Shown here piece by piece: positions 1-55,224 of a DNA stretch of 64,000 nucleotides. This DNA is from Amphiscolops sp. MND2022. Its lineage: Eukaryota. The notes beneath the pieces were generated by a model. It was not told the origin of the DNA. It saw only the letters and a list, made by a program, of their open reading frames with translations, and ran no database searches. A program made the translations under genes and the position numbers. The stretch's first letter is position 1; every line of letters starts with the position of its first letter. The stretch spans positions 62,932,001-62,996,000 of the forward strand of contig OZ076409.1 in the NCBI GenBank assembly GCA_964187785.1, given 5' to 3'.

Positions 1-2832
1 AGAGAAGCAGGTTTCAAAATGAGAGCTGAGAAATGTCATTTCATGCGCACCGAAACCAAATACCTCGGAAGAGTAGTTTCGGCCGAAGGCATAAAGCCAG
101 ACCGGCAGCGGTCAGCAAGATCCAAGACTGGATGCCCAAGAGAAGTAAAGAGGAGCTGCAGAGGCTAACTACTACCAACACTTCATTCTCTTTCACGCTG
201 CTAAGGTACAACCTATGCAGGAACTGTTGAGGAAAAACCAACACTTCTACTGGAACGAGAAGCATCAAGAAGCGTTTGTTCCAGTGGAACAGGCATTAGC
301 CGATGCCACAGTTTTGACAGCGCTAAACGCAAGAGGACGTTGTGTTTTGGACACGGATGCCAGTGCAGTTGCAATAGCCGGAATCCAAGAACAGGAAAAC
401 AATGCTACGGCTATTCTTCCTCCTATCGTTTATGGAAGCAAATCACTGACTCGAACACAACTGATTTATGGCGCCTCGAAATCGGAGATGTATGCAGTGT
501 TCTAATTCATTGAGAAATACCATTCATACCTTGCATGTCGAGAATTCACGCTGCGTGTGGATAACCAGCCTCTCTTGTGTCTGAAAACATACTCAATGGA
601 TCAGGCCATCATTGGACGCTGGATTGCGAGCATCGATCAACCACTTCAAGACGGTTCACAGACCACGCACGCAACATTGAAATGCAGACGGTCTCAGCAA
701 AGGGACCAACAATTTTGTGCATAGGAAAAAAATTGTGGAGACTCTCCCAGAAGTGAGCAAGGGGTTCAGTTTCATGTCCCAAGATGATTATGAAAGTCTC
801 CCCACCATGCCATACATTGATAAACACGGGTAATTCATTTCGAATCACCCAGAACTGCCAGCAGAAGCTCGAGCACAACTCTGTGTGCTGTACCTCTTGA
901 AGAAGAAGCGACCAAAAGAGGAACCAATCTCAGATCAGTCTTTGAAATCCATACCATGGTACCCAGAGTAACAATGGGAAACAACTCCGACATCACCCAA
1001 AAATGATAGACCAATATGTATCCTCAGTGTAACCACCAAAGTGCTGACGGCACGTCTTGATACTACCAAACGCGAACCAGTGTTAAGTTTGATTGCCTAC
1101 TCAGTGTCAAGAACAAACTGATGTCCTTAGGCTAGTTGGAACTGAGCTGCACAAGCATCAATCGACAATGCCAGGATTGAAAGGTCTTCATCTATCTCAA
1201 TACAGGGACGTATACCTTCTAGCGCTGAAGAAACTAATGAAGAACGAGCCATTGGATGACATCTTGTTCCCCGAAGACGTGCAAGACTTTGCCAAATGAT
1301 ACTATCATCAAAAGAAAGTCTTACTGTTCCTGAACGCGGACGACATTTTGTGTGTAAATTACATTCCCCAGCAACGCACGAGGCATGGACGACTATGTAT
1401 GATCGTCATGCCCCAGATGTACCAACATCAACTCTTGTATAGAGCGCATGATGAATCAGGACACCAAGGTGTTGGCAAATTGGTGGCGAGAATACAGGAG
1501 CGCCACACTTGGCCAGGCACCAAGCGTGGTGTAGTCAACCACATTAGGCGCTGTTTAACGTGTCAATAGAAAAAACATCCCGCTGGGAATCCCTGCTATC
1601 CGTTGCAAAGCACGAACAGCAGCAATTTCAATGATCTGGTGCAGTTTGATCACTTGAAGATTTGCAAGATCACGTTAAGAAACAACGGACTACTAGTCAT
1701 CATTGACCACTTTACCAAGTTCGCAGAGGCAATTCCATGTGCACATGACAAGTACGATGCTCAGACCACAGCAAAGATCATCCTGAACAAATGATTTGCT
1801 AAACACGGCACTCCCGCTTAAAGGCAGTCTGACAATGCCACAAATTTCCCCGCAGAAATTGCACAAGAACTCATGAAAGCCTCGCAAGTAACCATGGTAA
1901 CGTCTACTTCAGCTCACCCTAGAGGCAATGGTCTAGTTGAACGCCAGAATTGAACATTTCGAAGATTGCTTACATTGCTCCACGTTTACACTTCTCGCAG
2001 GATGCTAGGTTGGGATGAGCACATAGATGGAGTCTGGGTGCCAACAAATCAACCAGACACGCAACAACTTGATTTACGCTCTCGTTTAAATATCCAGAAG
2101 TCGGAGCGCGAGAGTTCGAGTCTAAACAAGAATTCGTAGAGCACTTACTTACTTGCTAGACAGCAAGAGATTCACGGGCTTGTTTGCAGGAACACACTTC
2201 AGGCGCAAGTGCGACAAAAACAGAAGTTTGACAGGCATTTGAAAGCAAAGGCTCACGCTGTAGGTGACGCCGTTTGGGTTTTCTGTCACATAATTCCGAA
2301 GGGTGGTACCCGCAAAGTTCTTCGTGCCTGGGGTGGACCTCACAAGGTCACTGATGTACTACAAGATGGAAGACTATATGTGTTATACACAGGTCAAAAA
2401 GTGCACTTTGAACGCCTGAAGAAGCATGTGTCTGCACCCTGGGATTGGGCCGCACTCCAACCCTTTGGGTTGGACCAGAATGTGGCCATCATTGCTGATC
2501 CATATGAGGAAGAACGTGATGAGGAGATAACATCGGACATACCACGTGACACATTCCTTCCAGAACAACTGCCGGAGGCATCATTCGAAATGGAACCAAC
2601 CGTGCCTGTCCCGCCCCGCACGATTCAAACACGCACCCAGAGAGCGTTAGAACATCGAATCCCACATAGACGCTTCAGCCACTTCGGATACCCATCTGAA
2701 TCTGATGCTGACCAAGAACTAATTACACAAACCATGCAGGAAGAAACACAGCAACCAGTTGTTTTCCCTGACATTGAGGACCTAGAACCGTTGTTCTCAG
2801 ATCAAGAAAAAATCGTGCCTGAACCAGCCTGA
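1..2832 (+). pseudogene. pol: pol fragments of element A: RT C-terminus, RNase H, integrase
   Basis: RNase H VLDTDAS...YGSKSL...EMYAV; integrase zinc finger AHDESGHQGV...RRCLTC; core QFDHLK/VIIDHFTKFAEAIP; WGGPHKV (GPY-like); many stops and frameshifts. Confidence 0.92.
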
Positions 2833-3506
2833 TACCTTCACCATCAGGAATATCCGCACCAATGCGGTCGAAGCCAGCCTTGACAAACACACTTAATAAC
2901 TTCCCATTGTTCAGTTCACGTGCTGGAAGCTCAGAAGGACTAGAACCAACTGATGAAAATGAACCTCAGGAAGGAACTGACAGGGAAGTCCAAGCGCCAG
3001 GTCAAAGCCTAGCGACATTGCTCACACCAGATAGAACTCTTCGTGGAAGAGGTGGACCAAGAGGCAGAACTCGTGTTCGTAGAAGAAGAAGTACAACTTC
3101 ATCGAGCAGAGCAGTGGCAAGAGCGAGCAGACAATACACTCGATCAAGAGGTAGAGTAAGAACTAGAGCTCATTCGAGAACCTTAGACCGGGCATGACAT
3201 TATCGGACAAAGCGGAAAATATGTCACTAGATCAGCGGGATGCTGAGCAAACATCTCCTTCAGAGGCTCCGCCTTATTAGCTACGACGTAATAGAGCACC
3301 ACGATATAGGTGTGGAACATGTGGTTCCCGTAACTGCAGTTACGTCAACCTAGTTGAAGTGACGACACCAGGGTGAGTGATTGTCCCGGGGAGCGAATGC
3401 TCCTCCTCGGGATTGAGTTGACAAAGAAAAATAAGACGACTATTCACAACACAAAGTTCTTGCTATTCAAGCCAACCACCAGGAGATCCCATCGGTACAT
3501 CATATA

Positions 3507-4676
3507 GTGATAACGATAGAGAAGACTTACTCTAGCATTGGACCAAGTGTGGTTCCACCATTGGAAACCACACTAAAGGCCATGCAAGAAACATCACCCA
3601 CAAACTGTCTTATATACCATTTCAAAGAATGGACGTGGCACGACGAGAGTGGATTAGAATTTACATTAGCCGCCGTTATTCCCTCACTTCCACTATCAAA
3701 GGTGTTTGGAAAAATAGAGCCAGAGGACACGAAAGTAGCAAGGGTACGCTGCATTATCGCGCACCAGCTTGGCAACAAAACGGCGTGACTTCCCCTCCTG
3801 AAGATGTATATCTCCCAACCGCTATTTGGTGGCTACTAGTCACCTCCTTAGACGAAGTATCACCAGTGAATCCCGGAACTCTTTGATTTGCCTAGAGATT
3901 TTACGCACACTCGTGGAATTCGATGACACACTTTGTTTCCATTTAGCAGATATATATCGCGGAAATATTTTTAGTCAACATTGGTTACAGCTCCTAGCTA
4001 TCATTTTCTGTCTTAAAGCCAAAATAGGCTTGTTGGACAAAAACACTTTTACGTTCGAGAACCCCGTGACCGTGTTTACAGCACTCTCCGTAGTCCACGA
4101 TTGGTCCTGCACGCACATGGGAAACAAACCATCACGTAGAACAGTGTGGCAGGATCGCAAGGCCATACTGGAACAAATAGCACCAAGTCAGGACAACCAA
4201 AGCACCTTCACGGGAAACCTGTTAACAACGAACCCAAAAATCAAGCTGAACTATCTACCATGGATAACCTATGATGAAACCGATATTCTGTGGTAGAATG
4301 CTGTCCGGCGAATCTGATCTCGTACTCAGCAGTGGGGCGTTACGTCATTCGGGAATATGGACAAGAGGACAATTTTAGACTACGACCGGTCGTAGGAAAA
4401 GCAGTACACCCAGTCAAGTCACCAAATGCGCCATGGAACAATGATGTTTATCTATGTTTCACCAGAGCCTCCAACAAGCAACCCATACTACATGAGGTGT
4501 TACATTCGTGTCTGATAGATCTAGTAAAGAAGCTCACACAAGCTCACTTCACACAAGTTCGCTTTTTTATCTATGATCCTGAAAGGTTGATCAACATACG
4601 ACCAGCTTGACATCCAAGGTTGAGAGATCATATTTTTGAATCAAATATTGATATAGTTCTCAATGATGGGGTATAA
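3507..4676 (+). pseudogene. Post-integrase extension with two degenerate macrodomain-like (TARG1/OARD1 type) units
   Basis: Unit 2 ITYDETDILW..VECCPAN..VIREYG..VYLCFTRASNKQPILHEVLHSCLIDL..HIFESNIDIVL follows the TARG1 pattern (ITYVKGDLF..AHCISED..FKKKFG..IYYLITK..PTYENLQKSL..VFEATDIKITVY); unit 1 WWLLVTSLDEVSPVNPGTLLICLEIL..WLQLLAIIF follows the same pattern; aligned by eye only. Confidence 0.6.
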
Positions 4677-5325
4677 GTGTCAATTGCATCAGTTAACGCA
4701 TACGGTAGCAAAATAAAGGACAAGTTAGATTGAGCACCAGTAGCACTTAGAAATAGCCATTCAAGAGGCCACTCGCCTTCTCTTAAGAGTATTTGTCGTT
4801 TTAACTATTTGTTGGAACTTTTTAAAGGCAGATTGTCAAAAATGTTTTATTAGTTGTCGCCTCAGCGTTTGATTGTTTTGTTTGCGTTCATTCAAAAAAT
4901 GTTTTAGTCCACAACCGCTGCCTGTTTTCAGTTGTGTCCTATTTTGCTGTGTCTGCGCGTTATTAGATCACCATCCTAATTACACCCTCGCAGCATCCTC
5001 AGATTATACCCCAGGTGCTACCTATTAACGCAGTTTGCTTTCATTTCTTGTTTGTACACAGTGCATTATTTTTTCACTTTGTTGAGAGATTGACCATTCA
5101 GCAATTCGAGCAAAGTAGATCCAACTGACAACGACAAAAAATCGATATAATAGTCTTTTGATCACCGTCGACTATCTGCTGTTATCATTTAAGGAATGGT
5201 GAAATAGTACATGACAAGAGACGGTTATGAATCATAGTAGTATTCAAAAAACCACCCAATATACGATTGACAGCGCCTGTGTTTTCTATGAAACTTTGCA
5301 ATGAATGAACTTTCTAAGCGCATAG

Positions 5326-5720
5326 CGCATTCCAGTGTTTGTCGTGACTGATATCACACGTTCCAGCACACGGTCGTCGGCTTTTGAAATGTTTGTTCTG
5401 CCTGACAGTTGAATGCAAGATGAATGAAGTTCCAGAAACCAAGAACAACACAGTGAATGAAAAGGACACCCCATTCACACGTCGGAGCACAATGGACTGA
5501 ATGGACTCTCCTTTGTGATTTGTTTCGATGTTTTATGTATCTTGTTTCCATATTAGTGCTATTCATTTTGCAGTTAATTTTGACAGGCATTGCAATGCTC
5601 TTCCAAGATCAAAACTTGTGCTATACTCCATTCAAGTGCTATTGTGAATTTCGTAACTACTTTGTAGGTAGGTCCCAGCTTGGTGCCTGCCTGCTTAAAA
5701 CGGAAAAAAAGTGCAATTGA
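5326..5720 (+). pseudogene. Small Cys-rich ORF with a hydrophobic segment between pol and the 3' LTR of element A
   Basis: ORF 5457-5720 has hydrophobic YLVSILVLFILQLILTGIAMLF then CYTPFKCYCEFRNY..QLGACLL; the same motif (CNNPFKCFCAFRNY..QLGACLL) is readable in element C at about 31670-31770. Confidence 0.5.
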
Positions 5721-6033
5721 AATTTCGCATCGAAATTTTCCTAGCTTTGCTGGTTAAGTTTCGCCAAAGTGTAACTATCCCTAAAAAGAAGTTTTAACCA
5801 GATTGAAACGAATGGAAAGTGTTTTCTAGAGAAATTGGTTCATATTTTGCGGAATCGTTGAGAAGTGCTAATTTGAAGAGATCAAAAACGGTGCTAAAAT
5901 TGAAAACGTGTTACCAAAATGATGCAGAGTTTTTGAGAAGTAAGATCGAAGAGAAAATTGGAAATAACGTTGCTAAGACCCAGTTGATATGCAATTTTGT
6001 ATCCTCTCTTGTTTGCCGAGGACGACAAACTAC

Positions 6034-6046
6034 GGGCCGGGGAGGA
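6034..6046 (+). promoter_or_regulatory. Polypurine tract of element A
   Basis: GGGCCGGGGAGGA directly before the TGTAACGT LTR start; counterpart at 31367-31380 in element C. Confidence 0.75.
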
Positions 6047-6758
6047 TGTAACGTCGACCAGTCGACGACCAAAATTTCGATGAAGGAGACCAAAAATGTG
6101 CGCATAAAAATGGCCGACCTGGCAGATACTTGAAATCATAGAGAAGCCGAAAATGCACAAAAAAGGACCCCCGACCCATCACCCTCAACGCAGAACGTGA
6201 CTGACAGCCACCTTATCATAAAACATGCCAGGAAACCCGGAATTGTGACATTTGTCTGTGTATTTTCAAGGTTTCTACAGAAGAGTGCCTCGAAATCGAG
6301 AAGTCACCTGTTTGTGGATGATGAAGAAAACTCCAAAACCTGCTTGAACGAACTAGAAGAGCTACTTTTGATCAATTCTAGTGTTATTGATGTTTATTTG
6401 CAGGTTTATGGTGATGCCGGATCTGGTTGATCCTTGTATTTGCATTTTTAGACGTTATTCATCTAATAGAATGCACTTTAGCTAAACCCATGTTTTTGAC
6501 CTCTGGAGTATGTAGGACAGCAGGAACTTTTAGGAACGTTTTTACGTGCTTGTGGGACGTTTCCGGTCTTTGTGTGGGCCGGCACGTCGCCACGGAGATC
6601 TAATTTGAGGAGTCTCCTTAGACCAGTGGAAAAGTCCCCATGGAGACCTTTTCGGGACTAAAAACTAATGTCTAGGTTGTTGTAAGACCCTGGTCTCCTG
6701 CTAAAGCAATCTAGGCATTGTCCTAGCACTAGAATGTAGCTGTTAGCTTGACGTTACA
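6047..6758 (+). repeat. 3' LTR of element A (712 bp)
   Basis: TGTAACGT...ACGTTACA perfect 8-bp terminal inverted repeat; homologous to the LTRs at 30657-31366 and 43259-43959. Confidence 0.9.
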
Positions 6759-12358: not shown

Positions 12359-13865
12359 ATTGAACAAAATCTTCGCATAGAATAAGACAGACCACCATTG
12401 GGGTCTGAGAAAATACTAAATACAGTTGTTGTTCTCACATTATTTTTTACCAAGCCGTTAGCTGTAACAATTGTGATGTACATGTCTATGCCGAGAGTCA
12501 ACCACTTTCATGTTAATTACAAATGTGACCTGGAAAAGATCATCAGATACGAATCTAAAGATTACAGCAACAGAGACGACAATTAACCAGAGTCTATTTT
12601 AGGATAATATAATAGAGACACAAAAGCTGCTCAGAAACACTGTAAAAACATTTGCCACAAAAGCCGCCACTGCTATGGATAGAATGTCAGCTGCCTCAAA
12701 ACCATTCTGGTGACGTCAAATGTCATGCAAGGCCGAAGTCCACCAATTACCAAAGACCGAGAACAACAGATTAGCACTCAAAGAAATACCAAACAAAGTA
12801 TCCTACTCGAATTACGTCGATTCAATCAAGTTTCAGCACCGAAGATTTCCCATTACCTATTTCAATCGACTGCTGTAGCGGACGGCCTCCCGCATGCATC
12901 TGCGAAGCCACAGTAGGACAAACGGTAAAAAGCGTTTAAATTTTAGACCTTTTTGAGCAGAATGCCACAGACAATAAGGACCACTAGAAAGTCACCAAGT
13001 ATCTAAAATGATTTCAGAACTTTTGGGACACAAAACAAACAACAACTGCATGTTTGGAACATCATACAGCAATCTGACTAGTAGAATCAAGTTCAGAACG
13101 CTGAATGAGAACGAGGCACGAATCCATTCATTGATGGGAAGGAGTAGAACGGTCCATTCGAAAATGAAAGAAACTATTTTCAACCAACTCTACGGCAGGA
13201 AACAACGAAGGTGAAGATGTAGCTATTTGGACTTATCAACGGTAATAAGCCAAATTTTTGTATCGGCCAAGCCAGAAACGTTGCAGGTGTATGCCTTCAA
13301 AAACGGAGCCTGCAAAACCAATGAGAGCAACAAGCAGAAGAAAGGCTGATCCTTGTAGCGATATTTGACATATTTTTGGAACGAAAACAAATGCGAAACA
13401 TGTCGAAAGTGTATATGATTCAAAAACGCGAAAAAGAATAACGTGCCCAAAACAAGTTATAACAACGAATACGAACAAAGCGATTCACCAAAAATAAGAG
13501 AGGAAACCGATAACCAACGTTTTTTGAAGCCACTATGCAGGCGGGGTGAAGCCCGCAATACCGGATAACATGGGAGGTGGAACCATTTGACGAGCTTGCA
13601 CAATTGGGCGATGAATAACAAGGATAAACAGTAAACACAGCTGCTCGAAGAACATTTGCTCGAAAGCAGCTTCGATTTCTCTCACCTTCACTCATCCTAT
13701 GAAGGAACGAAGAAAGCTTATAAGAAACGGGTGAAAACAAATACGCCTGACGATAACAACTTACGAAAAACCTTGAAAATATGGATGTGGCCCACCTTGA
13801 TGATGCGCATTAACAGCAAAGAAGACAACTCCAAATACCTGTGGTCGACCAAAAATATACCCAAC

Positions 13866-16145
13866 TGTCACGACCCGCTCCCGGTCGTGTATTCACCTGT
13901 TGCAGTAGCATCCCAGGATTTGGTAGAGGCCGGGGACAAGGCCGAGGTAACTATCATTGAACTTAGAAACTTTGATAAACTAACCTAAACTCTCTTTGCA
14001 GTACAGCTGAATTAATTGCAAGTAATTCCCCAAATGCGAAAATCCAACGTAAGCGTTAGGGAATATTTTATAGAAATGATTCTAGACTAGCTAAAACTTC
14101 CGGTCAAATATTTTCACGCGTAATGCTACTCTCATTTCCGGTATTGTCTTCTGAATTTAGCCATACTAATCTAAACATTAAGACAGAAACATTCTCTAAT
14201 CGGGATCATTTTTCTTCTGTTCCTCACTAAAATGAAAACATCAAAAATAATATTCAACTCCGAGATCCCAACAGAGTACATACGATCTAAAATGAAAGAA
14301 CATACAGACAGAATACTGGAAGTGTTTTCCGGCGGTTAAATGGTTGTCAATATTCACTTAAGAATGCAATAAAGCAACATTAGAGAATGTTTACAACGCC
14401 TTGACTGCGTCACTCAACTAAGCTGGTATTAGGTGTTTCTATTTTTACGGACCAATAGCGTCGCTCCTTTAGTTGGATTATTTGAGCTCGAGCTAATAGA
14501 AACCATGCTTGGTTGCCCCTAGCAACGCCAATTAGCTAAAAGAAAGAATGAATTGGCCTACGCTCTCCGCTTTAACTCCGTCAGCCACCTCTGCTTGGCT
14601 ATAGCTAATCCTAATACGTACAGAGCAGCTACGGAACGGATTGTAAAATGGTATTCCGCCGGTCAGCTGTAGTTGATCTCAATAAGTACGGAGCACCTAC
14701 GGAGCAATTCGTAAAATAGTAGCGATGAAGAATTAGTTCAAACGGAAATCAAATAAGGTTTTTTCTGAATCGACGTACTTAAAGGATTCTGGAAATAAGT
14801 CCTCATGTAAAAGGTTGTACCGTAAAGAGAAGTTAAAACTATGATTGAAGGGTAACGATGCTGTGCTATTACAATAATCTCCTAAATCAGCTTTATCTTA
14901 CGTTACATTAAGAGTTTTTATGTATTCAGTAATTAGTGGCTTATCGCTAAAATATTTCACAGAACGTAACGTAAGGTTAACGTCAAATCCAAACCAAGTG
15001 CTATTCTTGCAGGATCACTTTTTTATTTATTCATATACGATGTTCATTCGGTTGCAAAGTAATTGTTGTCTGCGGTTGTATTTTTTCCTACCTATTTGTA
15101 CTTCGTAGTTTGTACTTGTTACGTTATGGCCACGTATAGGTCAAGTTTGAGTTTACTGTAGATGCAGTTGTTCGGTTTACACAAACTAATTGTTGGTCAT
15201 CATTATATTTTTCTTAGCATTGCTTGTTCCTCAATAATACCCAAATATCCGCGTTCTCAAATTCCTTTTGCTCCGTTTCAGTTCCGCTACAATTTTTGCG
15301 AGTGATTCTTTTGCTTCGAATCTCAACTTTCTTGAGTTAGGAATTGACTAATCGATCACGATGGCGTGCCTACGCCGATGAAAATTTAAGTTAGACTTTC
15401 ATTTTGCCGCAGTTTTAAGGCTTAAACAGGAAATGGATCGCCTGAACAAAAATGATTTCAACGGAGTTTTACGGAATACTGACGCAACTAGGAATTTTGA
15501 TACGTGATTTCATGACGCGGAAGTGAAATAATTTGAATCATTAGCGCTTTTTGATGAACAAACCCGATTTTATGATACCTAGGAATTTTTAGGTGGGGAA
15601 CAAATGATGCTAAGAAGGTATAATTACTTAGACAAGACATGTAAAGTTAGTTAGTTAACTGTGTAAGTTGTAATAAACTTAAACTGTTCCGTTGCTCTAA
15701 CGCTAAACAAAAATCTTCTTCGAAGAATTCACCTCTTGCCGAAGACCCTACTTTTGAACGATAAAAATGACAACTAGAAGTCAGAAAAGGAAAGCTGTAG
15801 CTGAGTTAGTTTCTGGAGATTTTGAAACCTCTGTAACCGAAAACTCTCCGTCTAAAAACCTCATAGCTAGCTCTAGCAAAGTTCCTAGAATAGAACCTGA
15901 GAGTCTGATTGAGATAAAAACGTCTCTAAGGAGAGAAATCATGTCTGATCTAACTAAAATACTTGCAGAAAACCAAAAGGAAATGCTTAAACTGATAGCA
16001 CCTTTAAACAAGAAACAAACTGTCCACATGAATGTTCAAGACTCTGACTCTGAACCTGAGAATGTCTCCGTAACATGGAGGTCTACCCCCGTCAAAATTC
16101 ATACTGCGACTAACTCTAAAACAACACCGGTAAATAGTCGTAACA
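13866..16145 (+). repeat. 5' LTR of element B (2280 bp)
   Basis: TGTCACGAC...GTCGTAACA termini; collinear, highly similar copy at 28050-30330; AATAAA at 15672-15677. Confidence 0.96.
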
Positions 16146-17176
16146 TGGTGACAGGAGTCCTCAATGACTCCACCAACCAACCCACAAAAAAACCGAAACA
16201 ACAACGTGCATCCAGTGAGCAAACAAAAGACCGTCCTTCAACATCTAAAAAACTGTTCGCGCCACAATTGCAGACAATTCCATCTACCAATCTACTTCCG
16301 ATGCCGAAAGAACTCACTGCTTTGCTTCCAGTCTTCGATGGTAAGTCCGAAAAGTTTGAACCTTTTGAGGACCTATTCCAAACTAACATCAAAATGTACC
16401 CTCATTCAACCGAGATACGAAAGATCAACTACTTCCATTCACTCCTACGAGGAAACGCGCTACAAGCGTATTGCAATCTAGACGACACTAAAAAAGACAA
16501 TCTAGAGGAAGTCATAACGGCATTCAAACGTCGTTTTGGCGATTTTCAATCATCTGCTAAGGCAAGATGCGAGTGGTATGCGCTACATTTTGACCCCACT
16601 AAACAGAAACTCCATGAGTTCCTTGACACCCTGCAAAAAACTGCGAAAGAAGTGTTCGATTCTGAAGCGCAAAAATTCATTGATAAGGCAATATACGCCA
16701 AAATGCCGGATCACGTCAAAAAGATCCTCATCAGGGCATTTTTGGAAGATAAGCCCTACAGCGACATAGTTTTGCATCTTGAGAGGGAGATGAGATTAAA
16801 CGGACTAGATGCGCCTGATGAAACAACCCTAGTCCCACTCAACACAGTGGACGCTGTAGTGACGGACGATAAAAAAGACCAATAGCAACGAGGTCATTGC
16901 TTTCACTGTGGCAAATATGGTCCCTATAAAGCATAGTATCGCAAACTCCAACGAGAACGTTACAATATCGCCAAAACAACCACAAAAGACCCAGCCCAAA
17001 ACGAACCACCCAAACCCAAGTGTGATACATGTGGAAAGATGCACAAAACTGAGAACTGTTGGAACGGAGCTAATGCGGCAAATGACCCCAGAAGGAAGAA
17101 ACGAGAATTCACCATTCCAACCAACAAAATTGGTGAACAACCCGTACCCACATCGTCCTCCCAGCCAAAAAACTGA
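15767..17176 (+). pseudogene. gag: gag of element B (starts inside the 5' LTR; in-frame stops in this copy)
   Basis: LPVFDGKSEKF capsid-like motif; knuckles CFHCGKYG.. (degenerate) and CDTCGKMHKTENC; the frame continues past the stop at 16883 to TGA at 17174-17176. Confidence 0.9.
16146..16158 (+). promoter_or_regulatory. Primer-binding site of element B (tRNA-Leu-like)
   Basis: TGGTGACAGGAGT directly after the LTR end; resembles the TGGTGTCAGGAGT Leu-type PBS. Confidence 0.7.
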
Positions 17177-17197
17177 AATCGCCGCGCCTACGATTTG
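17167..17197 (+). promoter_or_regulatory. Putative -1 ribosomal frameshift signal between gag and pol
   Basis: A AAA AAC heptamer right before the gag TGA; the -1 frame is open into ORF 17218-17499; downstream AAATCG...CGATTT stem. Confidence 0.7.
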
Positions 17198-20100
17198 GGG
17201 GAAAAGTAGACTCGAGGGTGTACACGATAGAGGACCCCCCAAACAGTTATGAGGAAGATTTTTTAACCGAATGCAATGAAGAACCAACTCAAGACTGGCA
17301 ACGCCGTTGGAACGTAGGCATGATACTCAGGCATAACGCCAGACACCCAGAAGATCCAACACCACTACCCCAGTGGATAACGGTGTCGCCCGATATCTAT
17401 GCGACACTCAAAAGACCGTTGCCGGAATCAAAAACAGAACGAATTTACATATATGACAGAAACTACAGATGTGACCCCTGGGATGAACCAACTATCTAAG
17501 ATACAAATAAACTATCCTTCAAAATCCAAGTCTCAAACCCTCAAGCCCAATTTACGGGGATCACAAACTTACCATCACCGCCGTCACCGATCCTGAAAAG
17601 AACAACACCATCCCCAACAGTACCCGTCACCATCACGTCCACACCGATAGACGCAGAGAACATCATATGCATTGAAGATAAAACAATATGGGCACATCAA
17701 GAAAGAGGAAAACGAGAGAATGCCGACCCTCCAGTAACACCCCCAAAAACCGCGCCCGTCACAGCACTGACAAACGACGACGTAGAAATCACGGAATGTC
17801 CCTCAAAACTGCCTGAAGATTTAGATGCCATCAAGGAATTCATCCAACACGACAAAGATGACGACTACATTCCGTTAATGTCCGCCATCGCACTCAAGAA
17901 GAAAAAAACGAATGCTTTTCCTACCAGTCGAATTCAACACAGTCAAAATCGACGCCCTAAGTTACTCAGGTGCGTACATTAACGCTATTAGTGAAAGAGA
18001 CGCTGAAAAACTCCGCCAGCACACTAGTCAATGCATTGTCAATAAAGCACCCTCATCCCCTTTCAAAGTACAGTACGCTAATGCCGAATTAGAACAACCA
18101 CTCGCCACGTACACCCTACGTTTCAAAATAGGGGACTACACCTTTGAAGAAACATTCATCATCATGAATCAAACGTCATTCCCCATAATCGGATTAGCGT
18201 TCCTACGTAAACAGGCCGCAATTCTCGACACTGCACAAGGAACCATCGACTTCCCTAAGATCCAAATCACGATGGCACTCACAGATGAAAGACAAAAGTG
18301 CAATCCCAAGTCCATCACAATAAAGACCGAAGCCAAGCACACAATCCCAGCGCACTCTACCCGGATCATCTACGCAACAATCCCTGTGAGTACCGAACAT
18401 TCAATAACTGGCACAATACAACCCTTGCCACAATTTGACGAATGCGCGAAAGTAATAGTAGCCCCAGCAATTACCACAGCCAGAGATAAAAAGGTACCAA
18501 ATAAAATCGCCAATACCACGGATTTCCCATACACAATAGCTACTGACACCAAAATAGCCGAACTACAAATCCTGAAACCCGAAGAAACGAAGATGATCCG
18601 TCCAGTCGACATAGCCGCCCTGAATCTTCTCACCGAACATGACGATGTGGTCACGTACATTATTGCACTAATGCAAGTAGAGCGGCCCGAAGATAATGAA
18701 GAGAAATTCTGGTTCCCAACTCCAGAACACCCAGGCAATGAACAAGAACATTCGCCCATACAAAAGCGAATCTTGAAAGAACTGCGAGACCTTGCCGAAC
18801 TAGAAAAACTTGACCCAACCGAAAATGAAGAATCCTGAAACAAATTTTTATCCATGTTCAAATGGACAGATTCACTGATTACGGGCAAAGACCGTGAAAA
18901 CCTTGAAGACACCATTGTCGAATTCAACGACATCTTCGCTCGACACCGGCTAGACATCGGGATGAACACGCAATTCAAAGTCAACTTAACCCCACAAGAC
19001 GACAAACCAGTGTACACACAAAGCCTACCAGTTCCCATCAACCTCAAAGAAAATCTGACGGTGGAACTGGCCCTCATGCATCGATCGATCTGGCATCTTT
19101 ACGACACTCCCCTTCTCCAAGTACGCCAGTCCCATATTTGCGCAACGCGAGCCCAACGGCAAGCTGAGACTACTGGTAGATCTGCGCAAAATCAACGCAC
19201 TCATAGCAGATGACTACATCAACAACAACCACACCCTGTCAGCACCCTCTCAGATGCGGCACAACACCTAGCAGGGAAAAAACTATTTTGCAAGCTTGAC
19301 TGCTCCCAGGCGTACCACTGCCTTCAAATTGCAGATCAAAGGTCAATAGAATTACTTGCTTTCAATTTTGCTAGTAGGACGTTCGCCTACCGTCGCCTGG
19401 CACAAGGACTAAGCAGAGCTCTATCAGCCTTTTCGAGCTTTATGCGTGAGTATTTGGATTCAGTCATCAAAGCAGACCTATGTGCACAATATGTAGATGA
19501 CATTGGCATTGCCGCAAATACAACGGAACAACTCATAAAGAACGTCAGAGCTGTCTTCAAGTGTATTAGAGAGGCAGGAATAAAACTAACCTTTGGAGTA
19601 ACCCAAATCGAATTTCTTGGCCGAACCATCACCCCTGACGGAGTAGCTCCGCAAGACCAAAAAGTCAAAAATTTCTTTTCCAAAGTTCGCTTCCCCAAAT
19701 CCAAAAAGCAGGTTCAAAGATACATCGGCTTTGTCAACTATTACCGTAATTACATACCGTGTTGTCAGAAAAACTCATTCGCATGTACGAATTTCTCAAA
19801 GCAGACTCTAAAATCAGAATCTCAGAGGAACTTGCAGATAACTTTAAAAAAATTAACGCCAGTTTAGCAGAAGCTTGTGGACTCGCACTCATACAGCCCA
19901 TAGCAGGAAAACAGTACGTTCTAATGACGGATGCAAGCTTTCGTGCATCAGGCTACGCCCTCATGATCGAAGAGAACGATGAACGCAAAATACTCTCTGA
20001 ACGGAAAACTTTCGCACCAGTAGCGTTTGGATCACGAGTTTTCTCACCTGCACAACTGAAAATGTCCATCTACTGCAAGGAATTCTTAGCAATCTACCAT

Positions 20101-22076
20101 GCCTTCCTTGAATACAGCCATATACTATGGGAAACAACAATTCCAACGCTGGTCTTGACAGACAACCGCTCAGTGACCAGATTCTTCCAGACGAAAACAA
20201 CACCTCCTGCACTCTGGAATGCCTGTGACTATGTACTACAATTCAAGTTCCGAATCATGCACGTGGCTGGCTCCCAAAACACGGCAGCAGATTTTCTCTC
20301 AAGACTTAAACTCACACCGAAAGAAAAGGTACAACTTAAACTACGAGACGACATCCTAACGTCCCCAATTGAGGTTAATCTACAATCATCAGATGTAGCT
20401 GACGAAGAAAAACTTTTCTTCCTACCAGACGAAGAAGATAAATCTGAACAAAAAATCTTTGCCCGAAAAGCACTCAGCAAGCGACGTGCTATAGACGAAC
20501 ATGAGAAAGAACTATCAACAAAAGTACCCGAAGTCATCAAGATACCACTCAACTCCGCAGTGTACTCCTTCGGCGCAATTAAAGAAAATGCACGGATCAG
20601 AAACGAACAAGATGTAGATCCTCTTCTCAAAGCACTAAAACAACGGATCTCACACGAAGAATATGACAAACACCTTCTCGAAACTGAACCACGAGGACGA
20701 AATCTTTTACGCCACGAAGAAAGAATCATAATGAAAGATGGATTTCTAATGCGGAAGTACTATGGAGAAGACGGATCAGTTACACACAACCAAATCATAA
20801 TCCCAAAACATCTAGTCCCAGAACTCTCGTCCACTCTGCATGGGAAAACAGATAAACACCCAGGAATTACCAAAATGATACAGGAGTGTAGAGCGAAATA
20901 CTACTTCCCGGGTCTTGCACGCAAAATCTGAGCTTGGGTAACCAGTTGTCCGGATTGCATTGCCAACAAAAGGATTGACACGAGACAGATACGTCTCAAA
21001 ATGCTAAGCCACACTGAATTCACAATAGGACCAGATAACTGCCTAGAAGTAAACATCTTACCGAATCTACCTTCCTCAAATGGATACCAACACATCATAA
21101 CAATGATGGATGTCTTCTCGCGTTACCTTTTCGCATACCCGACTCAGGACATGACAGCAAAAACAGTGGCACGATGTATAATTGATGTCATGACAAGGCA
21201 TTGCTAGCTACCAACCGTCATACTAACGGATAAAGGATCACAGTTCAGATCGGAGGTAGTCAATCAAATAGCTCAAACGCTTGACATACAGATAAACCAT
21301 GCATAAACGAAACATGCCCAAACGATTGGTATACATGCCCAAACGAACACATGCCTCATTGCAAACTTCACTAAAAATATCTACGGGAGAACGACGTTCC
21401 ATGTGGCACAAGTACGTCCAGATCGCAGTCATGAACTACAATACGAGCTACCATGAAAGCCTAGGCTGCGAGCCCACGACAGTGTTTCACGGACACATTA
21501 CGTACAACATTCTGGACATAAAACTCGGATTGAAACCTAACTGAGATAAAGATAGCAACGAAGAATTAACGGATCAACTACAGAAACAAATAGCCGAAAT
21601 ACACCAAGCCGCCAAAGAAAATCTAATGCAGTCCTACCTCAAATACAAACAGTACTATGACAAGAAAGCAACGGCTACACCGCTCAAAGTCAACGACTAC
21701 TGCTACGTCCTTAATCCGAAGGCAGACAACCAGTCGATGAAATTCGCTTTCAAAGATTGCATTTGGACTGGTCCCTACATAGTAGTCAAAGTACTCTCGA
21801 ACAACAACTACGTCGTACGTCGCACGGGAACTAGGTATACTCAAACCCTCAAAAGAATTCGCCTAAGGCTATATGCGCCTAATCAGCGAGTACCTGACGT
21901 AACAGTCAGAAAGGAAGATTACCTTCCAGACCCAGAGGTTAAAACAACCCACAATAATTGGTACGCGCAAGCTTGGGAAACTGAATTCGGAGAAGTTCTG
22001 TTCGGAAACACTACGGAAAACGCCGCCGAAGAAGATACAGTTACAGAAATCGCAGACACAACAGGAAACGGCGAAA

Positions 22077-22202
22077 TTACAGCGGAAAATGACGTGGTAA
22101 AAACAGCCACAAGCGAAGTTACAACGGAAAATGACGTGGTTAAAACAGCCACAAGCGAAGCTACAACGGAAAATGACGTGGTTCAAACAGCCACAAACGA
22201 AA
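22077..22202 (+). repeat. Three 42-bp in-frame tandem repeats in the pol tail
   Basis: TAENDVVKTATSEV / TTENDVVKTATSEA / TTENDVVQTAT. Confidence 0.9.
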
Positions 22203-22614
22203 ACACTGAAGGGGATAGAACACCTTCCGACAACGTTACGTCATTTAACCTAGATGTCAGCGATAACCCATATATTTTAACCCCACCGCCGATACAAAGC
22301 CCCCCGAAACTCCTGAACTACCGCCTATTGTTGTTGGATATAATCCTAGAAAAGTGGGATGATATAACTTGCAACCTAATCCGCGACCTAATGTCAATCC
22401 TGACTTTAGAATGCTCGACTCAGTCACTACGGAAGAATCACGTCCAACTCAAGACCAAACGAAAAGACTAGTAAACCAAACCGGACCGGAATGGCTACGT
22501 CAATTTTTTTCTCGGGATTCTCTAAAACTATGTACACAAAGACTGATACAATGGAAATCAGTGGACAACAAAAGGAAAATATATCTACATCAAAGTCTAC
22601 AAGAAATCATATTA

Positions 22615-25600
22615 TCAGCAGTTTTTGGATAGTTTCTTAGGCTTCGGGTGGGTACCAGAGCCATCATCATCAGCATCTTGCCCAGTTTTCTTTCTTCCTT
22701 TAGATGAACCAGCCCCACCACCCGAGTTACCACCGACGTTTTTCTGCTGCTTCCCTTTAGACGAAACAGTGGCAGGCTTAGACCCCGACTTCGTTCCGCA
22801 ATCACTTGACTTACTGCCACCAGATTTCACAGAAATACCACTTGGAGGACCTGTATCTTGCCTCCTCCGCTAAATCATAGAACTCAGGGAACCACTAGAA
22901 CCAGCTGTATCGCCACTATCAGATAACCGGGACATCCGATTTGCATTATTGTACTCCACATAACGAGCATCGAAGCTCTTCTGGCGCTCCGCGAGGAAAG
23001 TAGTAAATACTGCACTATACTTCACAACAAAGGTATCTTCATCCTCCCCGCAAAACTCTGTCCACATGCTGAAGTTAGACAATCCAAAGAATCAAACAGC
23101 ATCTGCGATGGCCTTTTTCACAACTTTAAGAGTCTGATCACTGCAGAACGACTGATGCGAATACCCATCGCTCAATATATACGACTGCACCAGTTGCACA
23201 CAGCTCTGAAAGTACTCAACACTCAATTCAAATTCAGATAAATCCAAAGACAGGGCAGGATATTGCAAAGCAGACACCCCCGAGACGAGACAACATAGCT
23301 TGAATACACAGAGCAAATGATGACGTGATAAAAATCCAACATCACGGAGCAGGTACGGCACCACATTCACAATGTCACCAGCAGACTGCCCTGACATGGA
23401 ATGATACCCCCGTTTTTCCACAATGAAACTCGCATGTTCCTCCAAAGCTGCACTACTCTCGTCCACACTTAGAGCATCACAAGATACAAGAATACGGCAC
23501 AAATCCGCAAACAGGCTGAAAACGGCCACATCATCACCTTCCAACATCAACTCGGGGCAGAAACTACACATCCCTTTGGCAATAACGGAACGTGCATATG
23601 TGCTTTCCAGTAAAATGATGATCAGACGATCAACAAACGGCCGACAATGAAGTCGGAAAGCCACATACTCTTTCGTCTTGCCTGCGGATAACTGCTTGCC
23701 CAAGTCATGACTGGCGAGAAAGGAATCGCACGGAACAACAGCGAAATCTAGGATCTTCACGATATCCATGTAGGACTCACAAGCGTGAATTTCAGAAAGA
23801 CCACTAGTGCTACGAGTCTTCAAGAGCAGGCAATACACAAAATTGCAAAACTCGCCATAAGCACGGAAAGCATAATCTGCCTGACCCTGTCGCAACTTGG
23901 GGCAATTGTTGTGGACTAAAACACAAACCATGTTCGTATACAACAGAAGACCAGTTCTACCACAATACTAAAAAAAAAAACAAAATGAAGGAGCAGCCAA
24001 TGATACGAACAAATAGACAGTCAACAACAATCAAGAAACAAGCCATCAACTCAAAAAGAAAACACTCACAAGTATCAAGGATCACTTTCAGCAGACCAAA
24101 CCGATAGGTTATCATATTATCGGCAGTTAGTAACCAATCAATCCCCTGCAGCTAAAATATACACAACAGGCTACGATAAAACGTAACACTGAAACTACAA
24201 AGGACGAAGCTATCACGCCAAACACCAATGAAAACAAATTTTCACTCACCCGTTCAGCTTTGTCCTTAGCCTCAGGATTACCAGTGCATCGAACAAACGG
24301 ACGTATCGAAGACCATAACTCGATCAAATCTGACAGTACATCCCGCAGATCAGCGAATTACACGTGGCCCTGCCGAACAATCTTGCACAGTATGGTTCTC
24401 TCCTCCATCCAGTCCTCGTAAATGGCAGTTTTTAAGCGTAACACAGTATAATCCACCAGGGAAGTCACCTCCACCATACTGAACACGTCCTGGTAGGCTT
24501 GCCGGATACAACGAATCAACATCTCACTAGTGAAAGGCTGGTAAGAAACAAAGACACGACCGTCAACTCGAGTGTCACTCAAGACACGGACTAAGGACGG
24601 ACTTCCGCCAACTATAGCCAAGGGCAACTCCCCAGACGGCAGACTACAAACGACTTGTGCCAAGGGCAGCAACTCTGGTTTTGGCACACTCTGCAGCAGC
24701 GACTCACAACCGACACATACCTTTTTCAAATAGTTGTCTTTCCAGAAGAGAACGAAACAACGTTCCACCTCCGTATCCTTTTCGTATTGCAGAGCATACT
24801 CCCGAAATTGCCCAATATTCTTGAACATCACGCGCAGCACTCGGGGAACAAGGCCTTGACACAACACTGACTAAAACAAACGCTCATAGAAAAAAAAGAA
24901 GGAAGAGAAAACAAAAAACAACGGAGAGTGAAATTACACCACAGTAAACATTTATGGCCACCTAGAAGCTTACAATAAAAGGATCAAAAAAAACACAACA
25001 GAACATCAGTTACCAGACGAACTTACTACACAAAAGTACCAACCACAGTCTCTGAACGGCTCCACTGTAAGGTGAATTCCGGCTCCTGACCGCCCAGTGA
25101 CGCAAGGAAGTAACCCCACAGGCGACGAACCAACGTAAAATCTCCGCCACTCCGCAACACATCATTCAAACTCGAAACGAGAGTCATCAGTGGCACCTTC
25201 GAAGAAGCTTTCGAATGTTTGGGCAACATGTCCTCAGGGAAGGGAAACTCCCCGCCCAAATCCACGGAAGGCCGCGAAAAGAAGTCGTCCCTCTGCCGAG
25301 CACTCAACTCCATGGGCTCCATTAGCTTGTTGTATACAGGGAGACCCATGTGCACACGATACGTGACGTCCTGCTCCCAATGCTTCTTCGACTCAAAATG
25401 ACGAATAATCTCAGCCGCCCCTTTTGAGCCCATCTTTACGTCTCTCCTACAAATGCGACAATAGAAGAGCTTTGCACTTCCACACTCCGAACCCGTCACG
25501 AAATCAGCAAACAACGGATTCAGAGCTAACATTTGACGATGCAACAATTTCTGACTGCTATATGTTTTCGTCTTCGGGCGTTCAAGGTGACTCTCCACTT

Positions 25601-26672
25601 TCTCAACAAGCTCGCTAAAGCCTATAATACACACAAAACTAATCAGGCAAACGAAACACCCAAACTAAACGTCACCGCAACGTACTACACACCATCACCA
25701 GAAGGCCAATAACAAACAATCAACAATCCTGTCTGTATCTGCCGAGCCGTACGCTCTTCTACCGTCGAAGCCAACTGACGGCCCAACTGCATCATTTCGG
25801 GTGACACAGGAGTTGCCGAAAATGACACGTCTTCTGCTCCACTCCAACCATTCAATGTAGCATCAAGCTCTGGGACCCGTGTTGTCCTTTTTAAATTTGG
25901 AGAAGACTCCATGAACTTCACGCTCGTCTTCCGGAACGGAAACACCTTCGAACCTACAACACAATCGCGATAAGAACTGGAAAATAGAGCCCAATAAGTT
26001 GGCCGATAAATAAACATGAAAAAACAAATAAAACAACAACAACAAAAAAGAAAACAAACATGCGTAACAACAAGCACACAACTTACAGCTTGGCAAATTC
26101 TCCTCTCCTATAGTATTTTCGTCTCCCGTGGAGGTGGTAGCAGCCTCACCTCCATGAGGCTCCACACTGACATAAAAATTGCCCGGGACTACCTCGGACA
26201 AATCAGGAGGAACAGCAGAGGAAACATCAATGCCCGGAACAACTGAAGACTCAGTAGTAGGACAAGCGGGAAGCAACGCTGTTAAAGCATCATTGATGGA
26301 CTGCTCAGGAACCAGCACTGAAGTCACTGGAGGCAGCTTCGAAGAAGAACCCAGCGAAGATAGCCCCACGGGGGTAGCAGAGGTCCCACCCGTGGTGGTA
26401 GCGGAAACAACAGCCAAGGAAGTTCTAGGTTGGGTTACTGAAAATCAAGATCTGGTTCAGACGCGTCAGAGTTACGGGTAAGACTATAAAAGGCTGATCA
26501 CCAAAATAACAATAGTCCTAATGCCCAGGAAGTCAGAAAGATTCTACCAACCTGAAGACGTAACTACAACTTCCGCTTCCGAGGGTCAAGCGTCGTCTTC
26601 AGTGAAGCAGAAGTTAGTCTCATGCCCCCTGAGGAAGCCAGAGATACCAGGAGGAACAGCGTCTTCACTCAT
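22615..26672 (-). pseudogene. Antisense multi-exon gene inside element B; BED-type zinc finger protein, probably derived from a hAT transposase (about 1,150 codons, with stops and frameshifts in this copy)
   Basis: Predicted introns on the - strand: 26484-26551, 26003-26086 (acceptor CAG>CGG), 25622-25692, 24871-25043, 24152-24249, 23968-24069, with GT donors and T-rich acceptors; FYCRICRRDVKMGSKGAAEIIRHFESKKH zinc finger; ORFs 23092-23943, 22870-23082 and 22615-22830 share one frame. Confidence 0.8.
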
Positions 26673-27298: not shown

Positions 27299-28144
27299 AT
27301 GAACGGCTATTCGTTAGTTATCAACATCTCGTCAGATGAGGAAATCAATAAAAAAAGCACGCCGCTAAAAACTCTGCCTCTTAACATGGTGGGATATATA
27401 AGTGATTCCTCCGTCGAAGTTTATCGCGGAAGCGATGCGGAACTAAACTCCACTTTCGAGTCACCTGAAAAAGCGGCACCGACGCCTAAGAAGAAAAGAA
27501 GAACAGGAAAAGTCACTTTCAACCTACCAACAGCGGACTCTGACACGGATTATTAGGAGGAGCCAGACTCCCCGCAATGCCTGCCTTCCCCAATAAGACG
27601 CACACCTGTTCTAAAGGAGGCAGAAAATATCCTTGTTCTGGGAAATGAAAGAGCTCCAAACGCAGTCAAACTGAACGACTTAAATGAGCCTTCATTGGTA
27701 GAATTGGAAGCTCTATACAGCTTAGGCTTAGAAGACCGATGCTATCTCGCATCCTTAGGCCGCGGGCGTGGACGACACACAATGAATATAAAGCAGCCAC
27801 ATCTAAAAGAAAATCTTCATCCTGACGGCATAGCTGGACCACCCGAGTGCTGTCCGGAGGAAATAGAACGGCTGGAGAAAGAAGTCCGTGAGTTGGACGA
27901 GGAAGAAAGAAAAATTAGGGACATGAAGGCGGGAAGAGGACGTGGCCCCCTACAGTCAAGAAAATACAATGGTCGCCCCCCTGTAATAATAAGGAAAGAA
28001 ATCCCGCACTGCTACGCTTTACCCTTGTCACTCGCATCAAGAGGGGCCCTGGCACGACCCGCTCCCGGTCGTAATTTCACCTGTTGCAGTAGCATCACAG
28101 TATTTGGTAGAGGCCGGGGACAAGGCCGAGGTAACTATCATTGA
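27299..28144 (+). pseudogene. Accessory sense ORF of element B with NLS-like and RGRGRG motifs, running into the 3' LTR (one internal stop)
   Basis: ORFs 27299-27556 and 27695-28144 are in the same frame and separated by a single TAG; PKKKRR, GRGRGR, short coiled-coil EEIERLEKEVRELDEEERKIR. Confidence 0.65.
28039..28049 (+). promoter_or_regulatory. Polypurine tract of element B
   Basis: AAGAGGGGCCC immediately before the 3' LTR. Confidence 0.65.
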
Positions 28145-30656: not shown

Positions 30657-31366
30657 TGTAACGTCAAGCTAGCAGCCACATCTTAGAGACGGGACGATGC
30701 CTAGATTGCCTGAACAGGAGAACGTTGCCTTAACACAACCTAGACACTAGTTTTCAGTCCCAAAGCGGTCTCCTAGGAGACTTCTCCAAACGTCTTAGGA
30801 GACTCCTCATATGAGAGCTCCGTGGCAACGTGCCGGCGCACTCAATGTCCGGACACGTCCTACAAGCATGTAAAAACATTCCTCAAGCTTTCTGCGAGTT
30901 CCTACATACTTCCGAGGTCCAAAAAGGGTATCTAGCTGAAATACATTGTATTTGGGAATAAGGACTAAAATCAAGACCTAGCAGGTCAAGCATCACCCAA
31001 ATACCTGCATACGGCAACAAATAGATAGAAATCATCTCAATTAACATTACAGTTCGAATTTGATCTGTTCCTGGCATCGGGCATCATTCTGCATCTTCGG
31101 TGCAAAATGGTTTATTTTGGCATTTCTCGGGTGGAAATGGCACATCACTGGGTATTGCTCTGTCGCTGCTTCCGGATATCTTCGAACGTCTGCTTCTACA
31201 GGTTTTTCAAACTCTTCGGGAGGGTTGGTGGTCTCGTGTGTGTTTTTTGTCACTTCTCTATGATTTCAAGGTTCTGCAAGTTCGGCTATTTTGACTCGCA
31301 CGTTTTTTGCCTCTTCATCAAATTTTTGGAGTCATCGAACTTTTGGATCGGATGCCTGACGTTACA
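30657..31366 (-). repeat. 3' LTR of element C
   Basis: TGTAACGT...ACGTTACA; direct repeat of 43259-43959. Confidence 0.93.
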
Positions 31367-32559
31367 TCCTCCGGGCCGTAGTTTCTCGTCCTCGGCAAAC
31401 GAGAAAGGGTGACAGCACTGACCCAGCGGGTCTTTAGCAACATTTTTCCAATTTATAGTACGATCTAATTATTCAAAGATTCAGCATCATTTTGGCATCA
31501 TTTTTGTAGCACTCGTTTTTCGGACAATCAAGAAGGTAAAAACCATGTTTCTGTAAAAACTCATTCGTTCAATTTTTAGTTTGAGTAAGTTCTTTTGAAG
31601 GGAGGTTACAGTTGGCGACACTCAAAAGGGAAATCGAGGAGAATTCTAATGTAAACTTATATATACTTTTTCACTTTGCAAGTAAGCAGGCACCAAGCTG
31701 GCACTTAAATACTTGGTAGTTACGAAATGCACAAAAGCACTTGAAGGGATTATTGCAGAAGTAATGATCTTTAAAGAGCGGTCGAAATTAACAGCAAAAT
31801 AAATAGCACCAATATGGACACACATAAAACATCGAAACAAATCACAAACGAGAGTCCATTTAGGCCATTGTGCTCCGAGGAGTGATTGGGGATCCATTTC
31901 AGTCACTGTGTTCATCTTATCTTTCGGGAATTATTCCATCGTCCATTCAAGTGTTGGAATGTCAGGTAGAACAAGCATTTCAGAAGCCGACGACCGTGGT
32001 ACTGGGACATATGACATCAGCCAGACAACAAACACGGGAATGCGCTTGCTCTATTGGAAACTTTCACGGTTATCACAGGCTGTGTCAATCGTTAGGAGGA
32101 CGGTGGTTTGAACACCACTAAGATTGAATTCATATCCGTCTCCTGTCACCTACGGTTTCACTATTGTGCTGCTGCTGACAGTAATTAGTTTCAAGCGATC
32201 TGAAGATAATATCTTGATTTCTTGTTTCATAAGTTAGATCCACATTGCTCAGAATATTGAAATGTAAAATTCGCAACGAAGAGAAAATTGATTGCACTAT
32301 GTACAGGCCATAGATATTACTATACTGCATCCACAGGTAGCATCTTTACTTCATGATATGAAGATATTGGAGATCGATTGGAGAGCCGCGCAAGGGCAAT
32401 GAAACAAGACATGGATGAAAACAAGTTGCATTCGTAGAATAAAACACTTTTACAAAAGGACACTTGAACAAAACCTAAATAAAACCAGAACTATGTAATT
32501 AAAAGACTGATTCGGCTAGGATAAAAACAACACTTTCTGGGTCATGTATTGGCAAGTTT

Positions 32560-43242: not shown

Positions 43243-43258
43243 TAAAAACTCTTCCAGA

Positions 43259-55211: not shown

Positions 55212-55224
55212 CCCCACTCACTCA

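Follow-up and report, generated by a model that had tools for sequence, protein, structure and literature searches.

The 64,000-nucleotide stretch of Amphiscolops sp. MND2022 considered here (contig OZ076409.1, positions 62,932,001 to 62,996,000; the window) carries a Ty3/Gypsy long terminal repeat (LTR) retrotransposon, element A, whose pol continues beyond the integrase into a module of two consecutive alpha/beta units, both of which are predicted to adopt TARG1-class macrodomain folds. The module is a real, selected, family-wide feature of these elements. A first-pass annotation made from the letters alone had proposed tandem TARG1/OARD1-like macrodomains here, as a family trait and not a one-off insertion, and both proposals held: each unit, in predicted models compared with known structures by means that included Foldseek, matches TARG1 best, and the module recurs in a second copy in the window, element C, and in intact relatives. 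The same annotation had suggested that the module counters ADP-ribosylation, which is weakened by the loss of both glycine-rich ligand loops in both units and by a glutamate at the position of TARG1 Gly123 in unit 2, or that it targets chromatin, which is a plausible proposal.

The module in element A and in its relatives

Element A is a decayed Ty3/Gypsy element on the plus strand, and the start of the window falls within its pol. From reverse transcriptase (RT) and RNase H to the final residue it is collinear with the intact relative P0008, and its segments follow in the order integrase, GPY/F-like stretch (2335), acidic linker, arginine-rich stretch (3042-3161), cysteine motif, and two alpha/beta units. 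The element is a Ty3/Gypsy LTR retrotransposon: the gag-protease-RT-RNase H-integrase order is present and identical in A and C, the LTRs start with TG and end with CA, and a polypurine tract precedes the 3' LTR. Pfam recognizes RVT_1, RT_RNaseH, Integrase_H2C2, and rve in the pol of relatives. The features of both copies that bear on the module are as follows.

1-2450, plus strand: decayed pol of element A (end of RT, RNase H, integrase core, GPY/F-like C-terminal region), 64-97% identical to P0008 and P0123 by tblastn; the element extends beyond the window start
2451-3041, plus strand: acidic Pro/Ser-rich linker 3' of the integrase, 35% identical between the most distant subfamilies
3042-3180, plus strand: Arg-rich stretch, with RGRP (AT-hook-like) motifs in relatives that are decayed in copy A
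3311-3343, plus strand: CxxCxxxxCxC, a putative zinc site, whose final Cys is gone from copy A
3498-3701, plus strand: conserved N-terminal extension of the module, a helix and a beta-hairpin with an RFKEWT motif; 17 of 75 positions common to five subfamily groups
3702-4041, plus strand: unit 1, TARG1-class macrodomain fold (predicted structure), with a short first helix and the ligand-loop glycines gone
4042-4260, plus strand: interdomain segment with two predicted helices and conserved Trp residues
4261-4667, plus strand: unit 2, TARG1-class macrodomain fold with a rebuilt pocket (predicted structure and profile search)
4668-4733, plus strand: conserved C-terminal tail (RVYVSI motif in relatives) and family stop; 7 of 11 positions common to five groups
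6034-6758, plus strand: polypurine tract and 3' LTR of element A (LTR 6047-6758)
30657-43959, minus strand: element C, a full-length decayed member of the same family as A; LTRs 89% identical (711 columns)
32520-33430, minus strand: module in element C, with unit 1 whole but decayed, an internal deletion, and the second half of unit 2

The module of copy A (about 1.2 kb, 3498-4733) is broken by frame changes near 3770-3785 and 3884 in unit 1 and near 4290 in unit 2, and its mapped frames contain stops, for example at 4294 and 4608 in unit 2 and at 4674. The extent first given to it, 3507-4676, ends at a premature stop, beyond which homology continues to the stop at 4731-4733. The view of a Gypsy pol extended by this module applies to intact relatives, where module and integrase are in frame, but copy A is not one frame. 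The CGTC motif noted previously is present and proves to be the start of the longer peptide motif CxxCxxxxCxC.

In element C, homology had been placed at 32560-33200. Unit 1 is indeed shared (A 3334-4007 corresponds to C 33427-32757, E 6e-113, with 74% of nucleotides identical), but of unit 2 just the second half is represented (A 4371-4598 to C 32747-32520, tblastn E 1e-9), and between the two blocks about 360 nucleotides of A have no counterpart in C.

Intact relatives show the undamaged arrangement. In P0123 (3,178 residues) and P0129 (2,974 residues) a single frame takes in gag, protease, RT, RNase H, integrase, and module, and on P0123 the Pfam matches follow in the order zf-CCHC (792), Asp_protease_2 (1079), RVT_1 (1460), RT_RNaseH (1714), Integrase_H2C2 (2074), and rve (2151). 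The family has, by P0123 coordinates, long inserts with no Pfam match between zinc knuckle and protease (810-1075) and after the protease (1167-1440), together with a 228-residue spacer, also with no Pfam match, between RNase H and integrase (1839-2066).

Searched with the last unit, 72 candidates yielded 39 proteins at 45-71% identity, all ENA-labelled, and a near-length profile search returned 462 proteins, the best 120 of which are all ENA-labelled. Cluster look-ups and profile searches added further relatives to give a collected set of 241 proteins. The integrase core is covered by 37 of these, and both units stand in the same open reading frame (ORF) in 24 of the 37, four of them from gag onward; as the relatives were gathered largely through the module, this fraction is a biased estimate of prevalence. 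Global alignment adds P0232 as a 25th protein with integrase and both units, and 12 others of the 37 end before the module is complete. The module is found in groups that are mutually just 36-60% identical and in three clusters with full-length representatives and 178, 45, and 1,094 member sequences. Pattern matches in JGI metagenomes (154) and IMG/VR (20) included no confirmed one.

At least one RGRP lies within 200 residues upstream of the cysteine motif in 70 of 74 proteins counted, the 130 residues before that motif contain 23-28 Arg and Lys in five of five long relatives, and of the 106 proteins with the first half of CxxCxxxxCxC, 102 have it whole. The units themselves are neutral to acidic in net charge (medians -1 to -6 and -1 to -8 by group).

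In a comparison of A with C, the ratio of nonsynonymous to synonymous change (dN/dS) is 0.21 over 172 codons of the extension and unit 1, 0.18 over 176 integrase codons, 0.29 over 217 codons of RT/RNase H, and 0.23 over 214 of the linker. Codons were used only at local identity to a relative of at least 40%, which lowers the nonsynonymous proportion (pN), while decay after insertion raises it. In the 49 codons of unit 2 common to A and C, synonymous sites are saturated (synonymous proportion, pS, 0.78; pN 0.33). These values show purifying selection on the module, at a dN/dS of about 0.2. Distant subfamilies are 42% identical in the units, 66% in the integrase, and 35% in the linker. Two trees built from 14 of 20 candidate proteins after six were dropped for short coverage, one for the module and one for the C-terminal region of the integrase, have the same two main clades, each with the same outlier, and pairwise identities in the two regions correlate (rho 0.82), with the module evolving about three times faster. 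The module tree follows that of the integrase, a pattern that fits one capture followed by vertical inheritance.

Predicted fold and ligand pocket of the two units

The model of the whole module, made from P0009 with a 29-row alignment, is weak (mean predicted local distance difference test [pLDDT] 42), yet it contains two ordered alpha/beta units. Unit 2 (P0009 residues 300-441) is closest to human TARG1 (Z 11.2, root mean square deviation [rmsd] 3.5, 126 residues aligned), followed by DarG (Z 10.9) and BT Q8A8B0 (Z 10.3), and its top Foldseek match is TARG1 with ADP-ribose (E 3e-4). Unit 1, modeled alone with AlphaFold2 from the natural relative P0058 (73 rows), reaches a mean pLDDT of 80, with 87-96 over residues 81-150; it too is closest to TARG1 (Z 12.1, rmsd 3.1, 118 aligned), ahead of BT Q8A8B0 (11.8), DarG (11.0), Poa1p (10.7), and aminopeptidase domains (at most 7.9), and TARG1 again heads the Foldseek matches (E 7e-4). 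TARG1 thus ranks first for both units in VIA and Foldseek, and the minimal alpha/beta/alpha macro fold is present in both predicted models. The N-terminal extension (65 residues before unit 1) has pLDDT values of 48-87 by ten-residue block.

Sequence profiles lead to the same protein. Family profiles searched against 177,635 PDB sequences match TARG1 chains only (five of five matches, E 0.11-0.19), and in another profile search of the PDB four of four matches are TARG1 (E 1.1-1.2); these E values are not significant by themselves and agree with the predicted fold. Only the deeper profiles reach TARG1, as phmmer with the unit 2 piece from the window and a close-relative profile gave no match in the PDB. 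The Pfam macro family matches none of six ORF pieces from the window, five intact relatives, or 27 aligned members, and PHROGs and NCBIfam gave no macro match, only weak matches to single members, the best of which (phrog_335 'phosphatase', E 0.0066 in 1 of 27) was not used. In the ESM Atlas the window piece gave no usable match, and one row at 0.89 has Macro in 11% of its members.

Two further observations concern similar proteins elsewhere. The ESM Atlas clusters nearest to unit 2 (P0010 1350-1510) are unnamed phage proteins of 150-170 residues, at 0.90, which are a lead only and are perhaps stand-alone diverged macrodomains. Foldseek against viral models returns a mixture of phage and insect RNA virus proteins (best E 2e-5), from which no donor can be inferred.

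The two units also resemble each other. Their profiles score 27.0 (P 7e-4), above all of 40 column shuffles (best 20.3), and they share a derived D-x-(Y/E)-R loop; this profile-level likeness suggests that they arose by duplication of one unit within the element.

TARG1 catalysis depends on Lys84 and Asp125 (PMC9411070), and the first-pass remark that these are not obviously retained proved correct, with no equivalent of either residue in either unit. Counts were made over 119 related proteins with at least 300 module residues, of 223 with a match, and the unit 2 register comes from a gap-free profile alignment to TARG1 76-149, numbered from chain 2L8R on the assumption that it begins at residue 2. 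In unit 2 the position of Lys84 is Arg in 108 of 111 proteins and never Lys (0/111), and that of Asp125 is Ser or Pro and never Asp (0/106). Between them, Gly121 is replaced by Asp (106/107), Cys122 by Pro, Gly123 by Glu (103/106, with Gly in two and Lys in one), and Leu124 by Arg (106/106). Unit 1, read through an indirect register, has Ser or Ala at Lys84 (Lys in 0/119), Asp at Gly121, an aromatic residue (Tyr, His, or Phe) at Gly123, and Gly at Asp125, the last three in 119/119. A conserved Gly is likewise missing from the loop before helix 1 in both units (at most one of 118-119 per column listed, the exact register of Gly43 not being given by the tool), and the glycine-containing diphosphate loops that TARG1 has around Gly43 and Gly123 are found in neither. 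By these defining residues the module is not a TARG1-type hydrolase. In TARG1 the substitutions G123E, G43E, and I44E abolish ADP-ribose binding and catalysis, and the G123E protein still binds RNA (PMC5928194). With Lys84 and Asp125 absent and Glu at the Gly123 position of unit 2, a canonical ADP-ribose eraser is unlikely.

Possible roles of the module

We tentatively favor, at a little below even confidence, a role of the integrase tail as a noncatalytic tether to chromatin or to a host factor, a preference founded on the position of the module on the integrase tail and on its companion motifs. A single TARG1-class macrodomain would have been acquired at the end of pol by a Ty3/Gypsy lineage and then doubled, with its ligand cleft rebuilt. 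The outcome would be a single gag-pol polyprotein whose integrase tail consists of linker, RGRP basic stretch, four-cysteine motif, and two pseudo-macrodomains. It can be envisaged that the basic AT-hook-like motifs grip DNA while the macrodomain pair docks on a chromatin or nuclear protein of the host via new conserved surfaces, so that the tail would steer or stabilize the integration complex, filling the role that the chromodomain has in chromoviruses. The parts of this course that we infer are the duplication inside the element, the loss of ADP-ribose binding, the retention of the tail on integrase after protease cleavage, and the tethering role. Retrotransposons with a fused chromodomain or PHD offer a precedent, and readers attached C-terminal to the Gypsy integrase target chromatin (bioRxiv 2021.11.30.470311), and the SARS-CoV SUD consists of tandem macrodomains that are blind to ADP-ribose and bind nucleic acid and host protein (PMC2674928; PMC8167360). 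The equation with the chromodomain position made at first pass applies insofar as the module follows the integrase in the same ORF, but only loosely, as it begins about 420 residues beyond the GPY/F region (P0123 2420 to 2845), after a long linker. A more specific version, which we consider rather unlikely, is that the twin macrodomains are an integration-targeting reader of a specific chromatin mark or host protein, with the rebuilt unit 2 cleft possibly recognizing ADP-ribosylated chromatin where DNA is broken; if true, this would be a targeting mode parallel to chromodomains and invisible to profile searches.

Several points weigh against a noncatalytic tether. The AT-hooks are weakly assigned (2 of 27 members match Pfam AT_hook, at E 0.2), and the protease could cut the 295-residue linker and free the module from the integrase. 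The unit 2 model is of only moderate confidence (blocks at pLDDT 44-79; whole model 42), the unit 1 register depends on the alignment of unit 1 to unit 2, and the 119 proteins are kin (76 in one 60% group), so that the counts are not independent events. Moreover, SCO6735 is an active hydrolase while having neither Lys84 nor Asp125 (PMC9411070). Finally, unit 2 keeps a nearly invariant polar cluster at or near the cleft, comprising Asp281 (115/119), Arg347 (108/111), His379 (106/107), Asp384, Glu386, and Arg387 (106/106). As several such residues are kept around the cleft, the site is rebuilt and has not just decayed, and the cluster could be a rebuilt ligand site.

In a modified form of the counterdefense proposal, the rebuilt pocket of unit 2 would bind ADP-ribose or a similar adenine nucleotide on protein, DNA, or RNA, or remove it, with unit 1 as a structural partner, and the element would thereby be shielded from PARP-type defense or guided to ADP-ribosylated chromatin. 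The closest folds are all ALC1-like hydrolases (TARG1, DarG, Poa1p, BT Q8A8B0), and unit 2 combines an invariant D-P-E-R loop and Arg in place of Lys84 with the Asp after the first strand (115/119), which occupies the site of the adenine-contacting Asp. The class also tolerates mechanistic change, as SCO6735 uses Gln85 (PMC9411070; PMC7050489). Such a pocket would nonetheless have to work with the replacements of Gly121 (by Asp), Cys122 (by Pro), and Gly123 (by Glu) and with no conserved loop glycine before helix 1, and loss of the glycine loop accounts for lost binding in SUD and in the infectious bronchitis virus X domain (PMC2674928); unit 1, for its part, lacks the first-strand Asp. We regard a working pocket as fairly unlikely on this balance. 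Somewhat less doubtful, though still on the unlikely side, is an accessory role in the RNA phase like that of coronavirus SUD (Mac2-Mac3), in which the basic stretch, cysteine motif, and macrodomain pair, after protease cleavage, bind element RNA or a host translation or silencing protein and so aid packaging, translation, or escape from small-RNA silencing. The two ADP-ribose-blind macrodomains of SUD bind G-quadruplexes and Paip1 (PMC8167360; PMC2674928), RNA binding by TARG1 takes place outside the pocket and is kept in the G123E mutant (PMC5928194), the long linker permits release of the module, and with gag and pol in one frame (P0123, P0129) the module may reach capsid levels. The units are, however, neutral to acidic, unlike lysine-patch RNA binders, and the integrase-tail position beside RGRP motifs points to DNA or chromatin.

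Two simpler explanations deny the module a specific activity. The units might have no specific ligand and be macro-like by analogy, in the manner of the N-terminal domains of leucine aminopeptidases, or might serve the polyprotein purely as a structural cap, which would suit their 9-14% identity to TARG1 in structural alignments, the Z scores of 7.9-9.1 for aminopeptidase domains, and the missing Pfam macro match. This is improbable, as TARG1 outscores the aminopeptidases by a Z difference of 2-4 with either unit, an independent sequence profile picks TARG1 alone among the PDB sequences searched, and conserved polar residues lie at or near the cleft. That the module is a neutral passenger, a captured host fragment devoid of function, is hardly credible: both copies in the window are broken, C lacks part of unit 2, and 12 of the 37 integrase-bearing proteins stop before the module is complete, but the dN/dS of about 0.2 largely refutes this explanation, and the frame is kept across the divergent groups and in the three large clusters described above.

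The question has some reach, as the steering of most animal-type Gypsy integrases and the roles of extra domains against host silencing are largely open questions. The module is compact and expressible and carries a sharp prediction: unit 2 would be a natural equivalent of TARG1 G123E, in which ADP-ribose binding is not expected, and yet the module is conserved across subfamilies only about 40% alike. Accessory domains of this kind go unseen by Pfam, so transposon catalogues may count too few of them.

Other sequences in the window and known systems

Element C has further peculiarities. Its gag region contains a tandem duplication of about 620 nucleotides (40140-40755 and 40797-41419, 96% identical). 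Between A (5053-6146) and C (32305-31253), the 1.3-kb 3' untranslated region shows about 70% identity, equal to coding DNA, and tblastx of this conserved region found no shared long ORF. A primer-binding-site-like sequence at about 43200-43235 on the minus strand begins TGGCGCCC, which may resemble tRNA-Lys; it lies about 16 nucleotides inside from the end of the 5' LTR of C and does not directly adjoin it.

A second, unrelated Gypsy-like element (13865-22471 and 28049-30330), with RT about 29% identical, contains a 2.28-kb direct repeat of 96% identity, and its integrase tail gave no match to the module. Several ORFs of 140-291 residues at 23092-26444 on the minus strand, three of which were scanned with no Pfam match, are possibly another element or a host gene. 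Pieces of Tc1/mariner-type transposase and a hAT dimerization fragment lie at 46064-47576 and 59674-60102, and a long pyrimidine-rich simple repeat and a 28-nucleotide tandem repeat occupy 54750-55900 and 59440-59700.

Macrodomain capture by Gypsy elements is itself probably not new, as Poa1p/TARG1-like domains are annotated in some arthropod Gypsy polyproteins. Macro domains also occur in fish epsilon-like endogenous retroviruses (Basta et al. 2009, as cited in PMC4977317); the capture is alike, and the difference is that the domains are described there as extra ORFs of retroviruses. The literature searched, which left most subscription journals and Repbase outside its reach, yielded no description of tandem macrodomains behind a Gypsy integrase: the term 'macro' is absent from the available parts of PMC13524379 and PMC6431247 and irrelevant in those of PMC8672886, and the portions of PMC8003356 and PMC8120803 consulted added no precedent. 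Within that literature the tandem postintegrase form is a variant with no prior description, while macrodomains in retroelements have precedent.

Among characterized proteins, the minimal macrodomain fold of both units is that of human TARG1/OARD1/C6orf130 (PDB 2LGR, 2L8R, 4J5S), which belongs to the ALC1-like class with DarG, SCO6735, and Poa1p. The module differs from TARG1 in being tandem and fused to a retroelement integrase, in lacking Lys84 and Asp125, in the shortened first helix of unit 1, in having Asp for Gly121 and Glu or Tyr for Gly123, and in the low sequence identity noted above. Chromoviruses such as MAGGY, Ty3/Gypsy elements with a chromodomain C-terminal to the integrase, are alike in placing a reader-type domain after the integrase in the same ORF; here the fold is different, Pfam finds no Chromo family match on P0008, P0026, P0123, or P0232, the module lies far past the GPY/F region, and a targeting role is only proposed. 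The SARS-CoV SUD (Mac2-Mac3 of nsp3; Z 5.9-8.0), an analogue in function only, likewise places tandem macrodomain folds that have lost the glycine loop in a viral-type polyprotein (PMC2674928). The module described here is nearer in fold to TARG1, net acidic and not lysine-rich, and carried on a retrotransposon integrase, and it would add to coronavirus SUD a second instance in which a mobile element has doubled a macrodomain and put it to new use.
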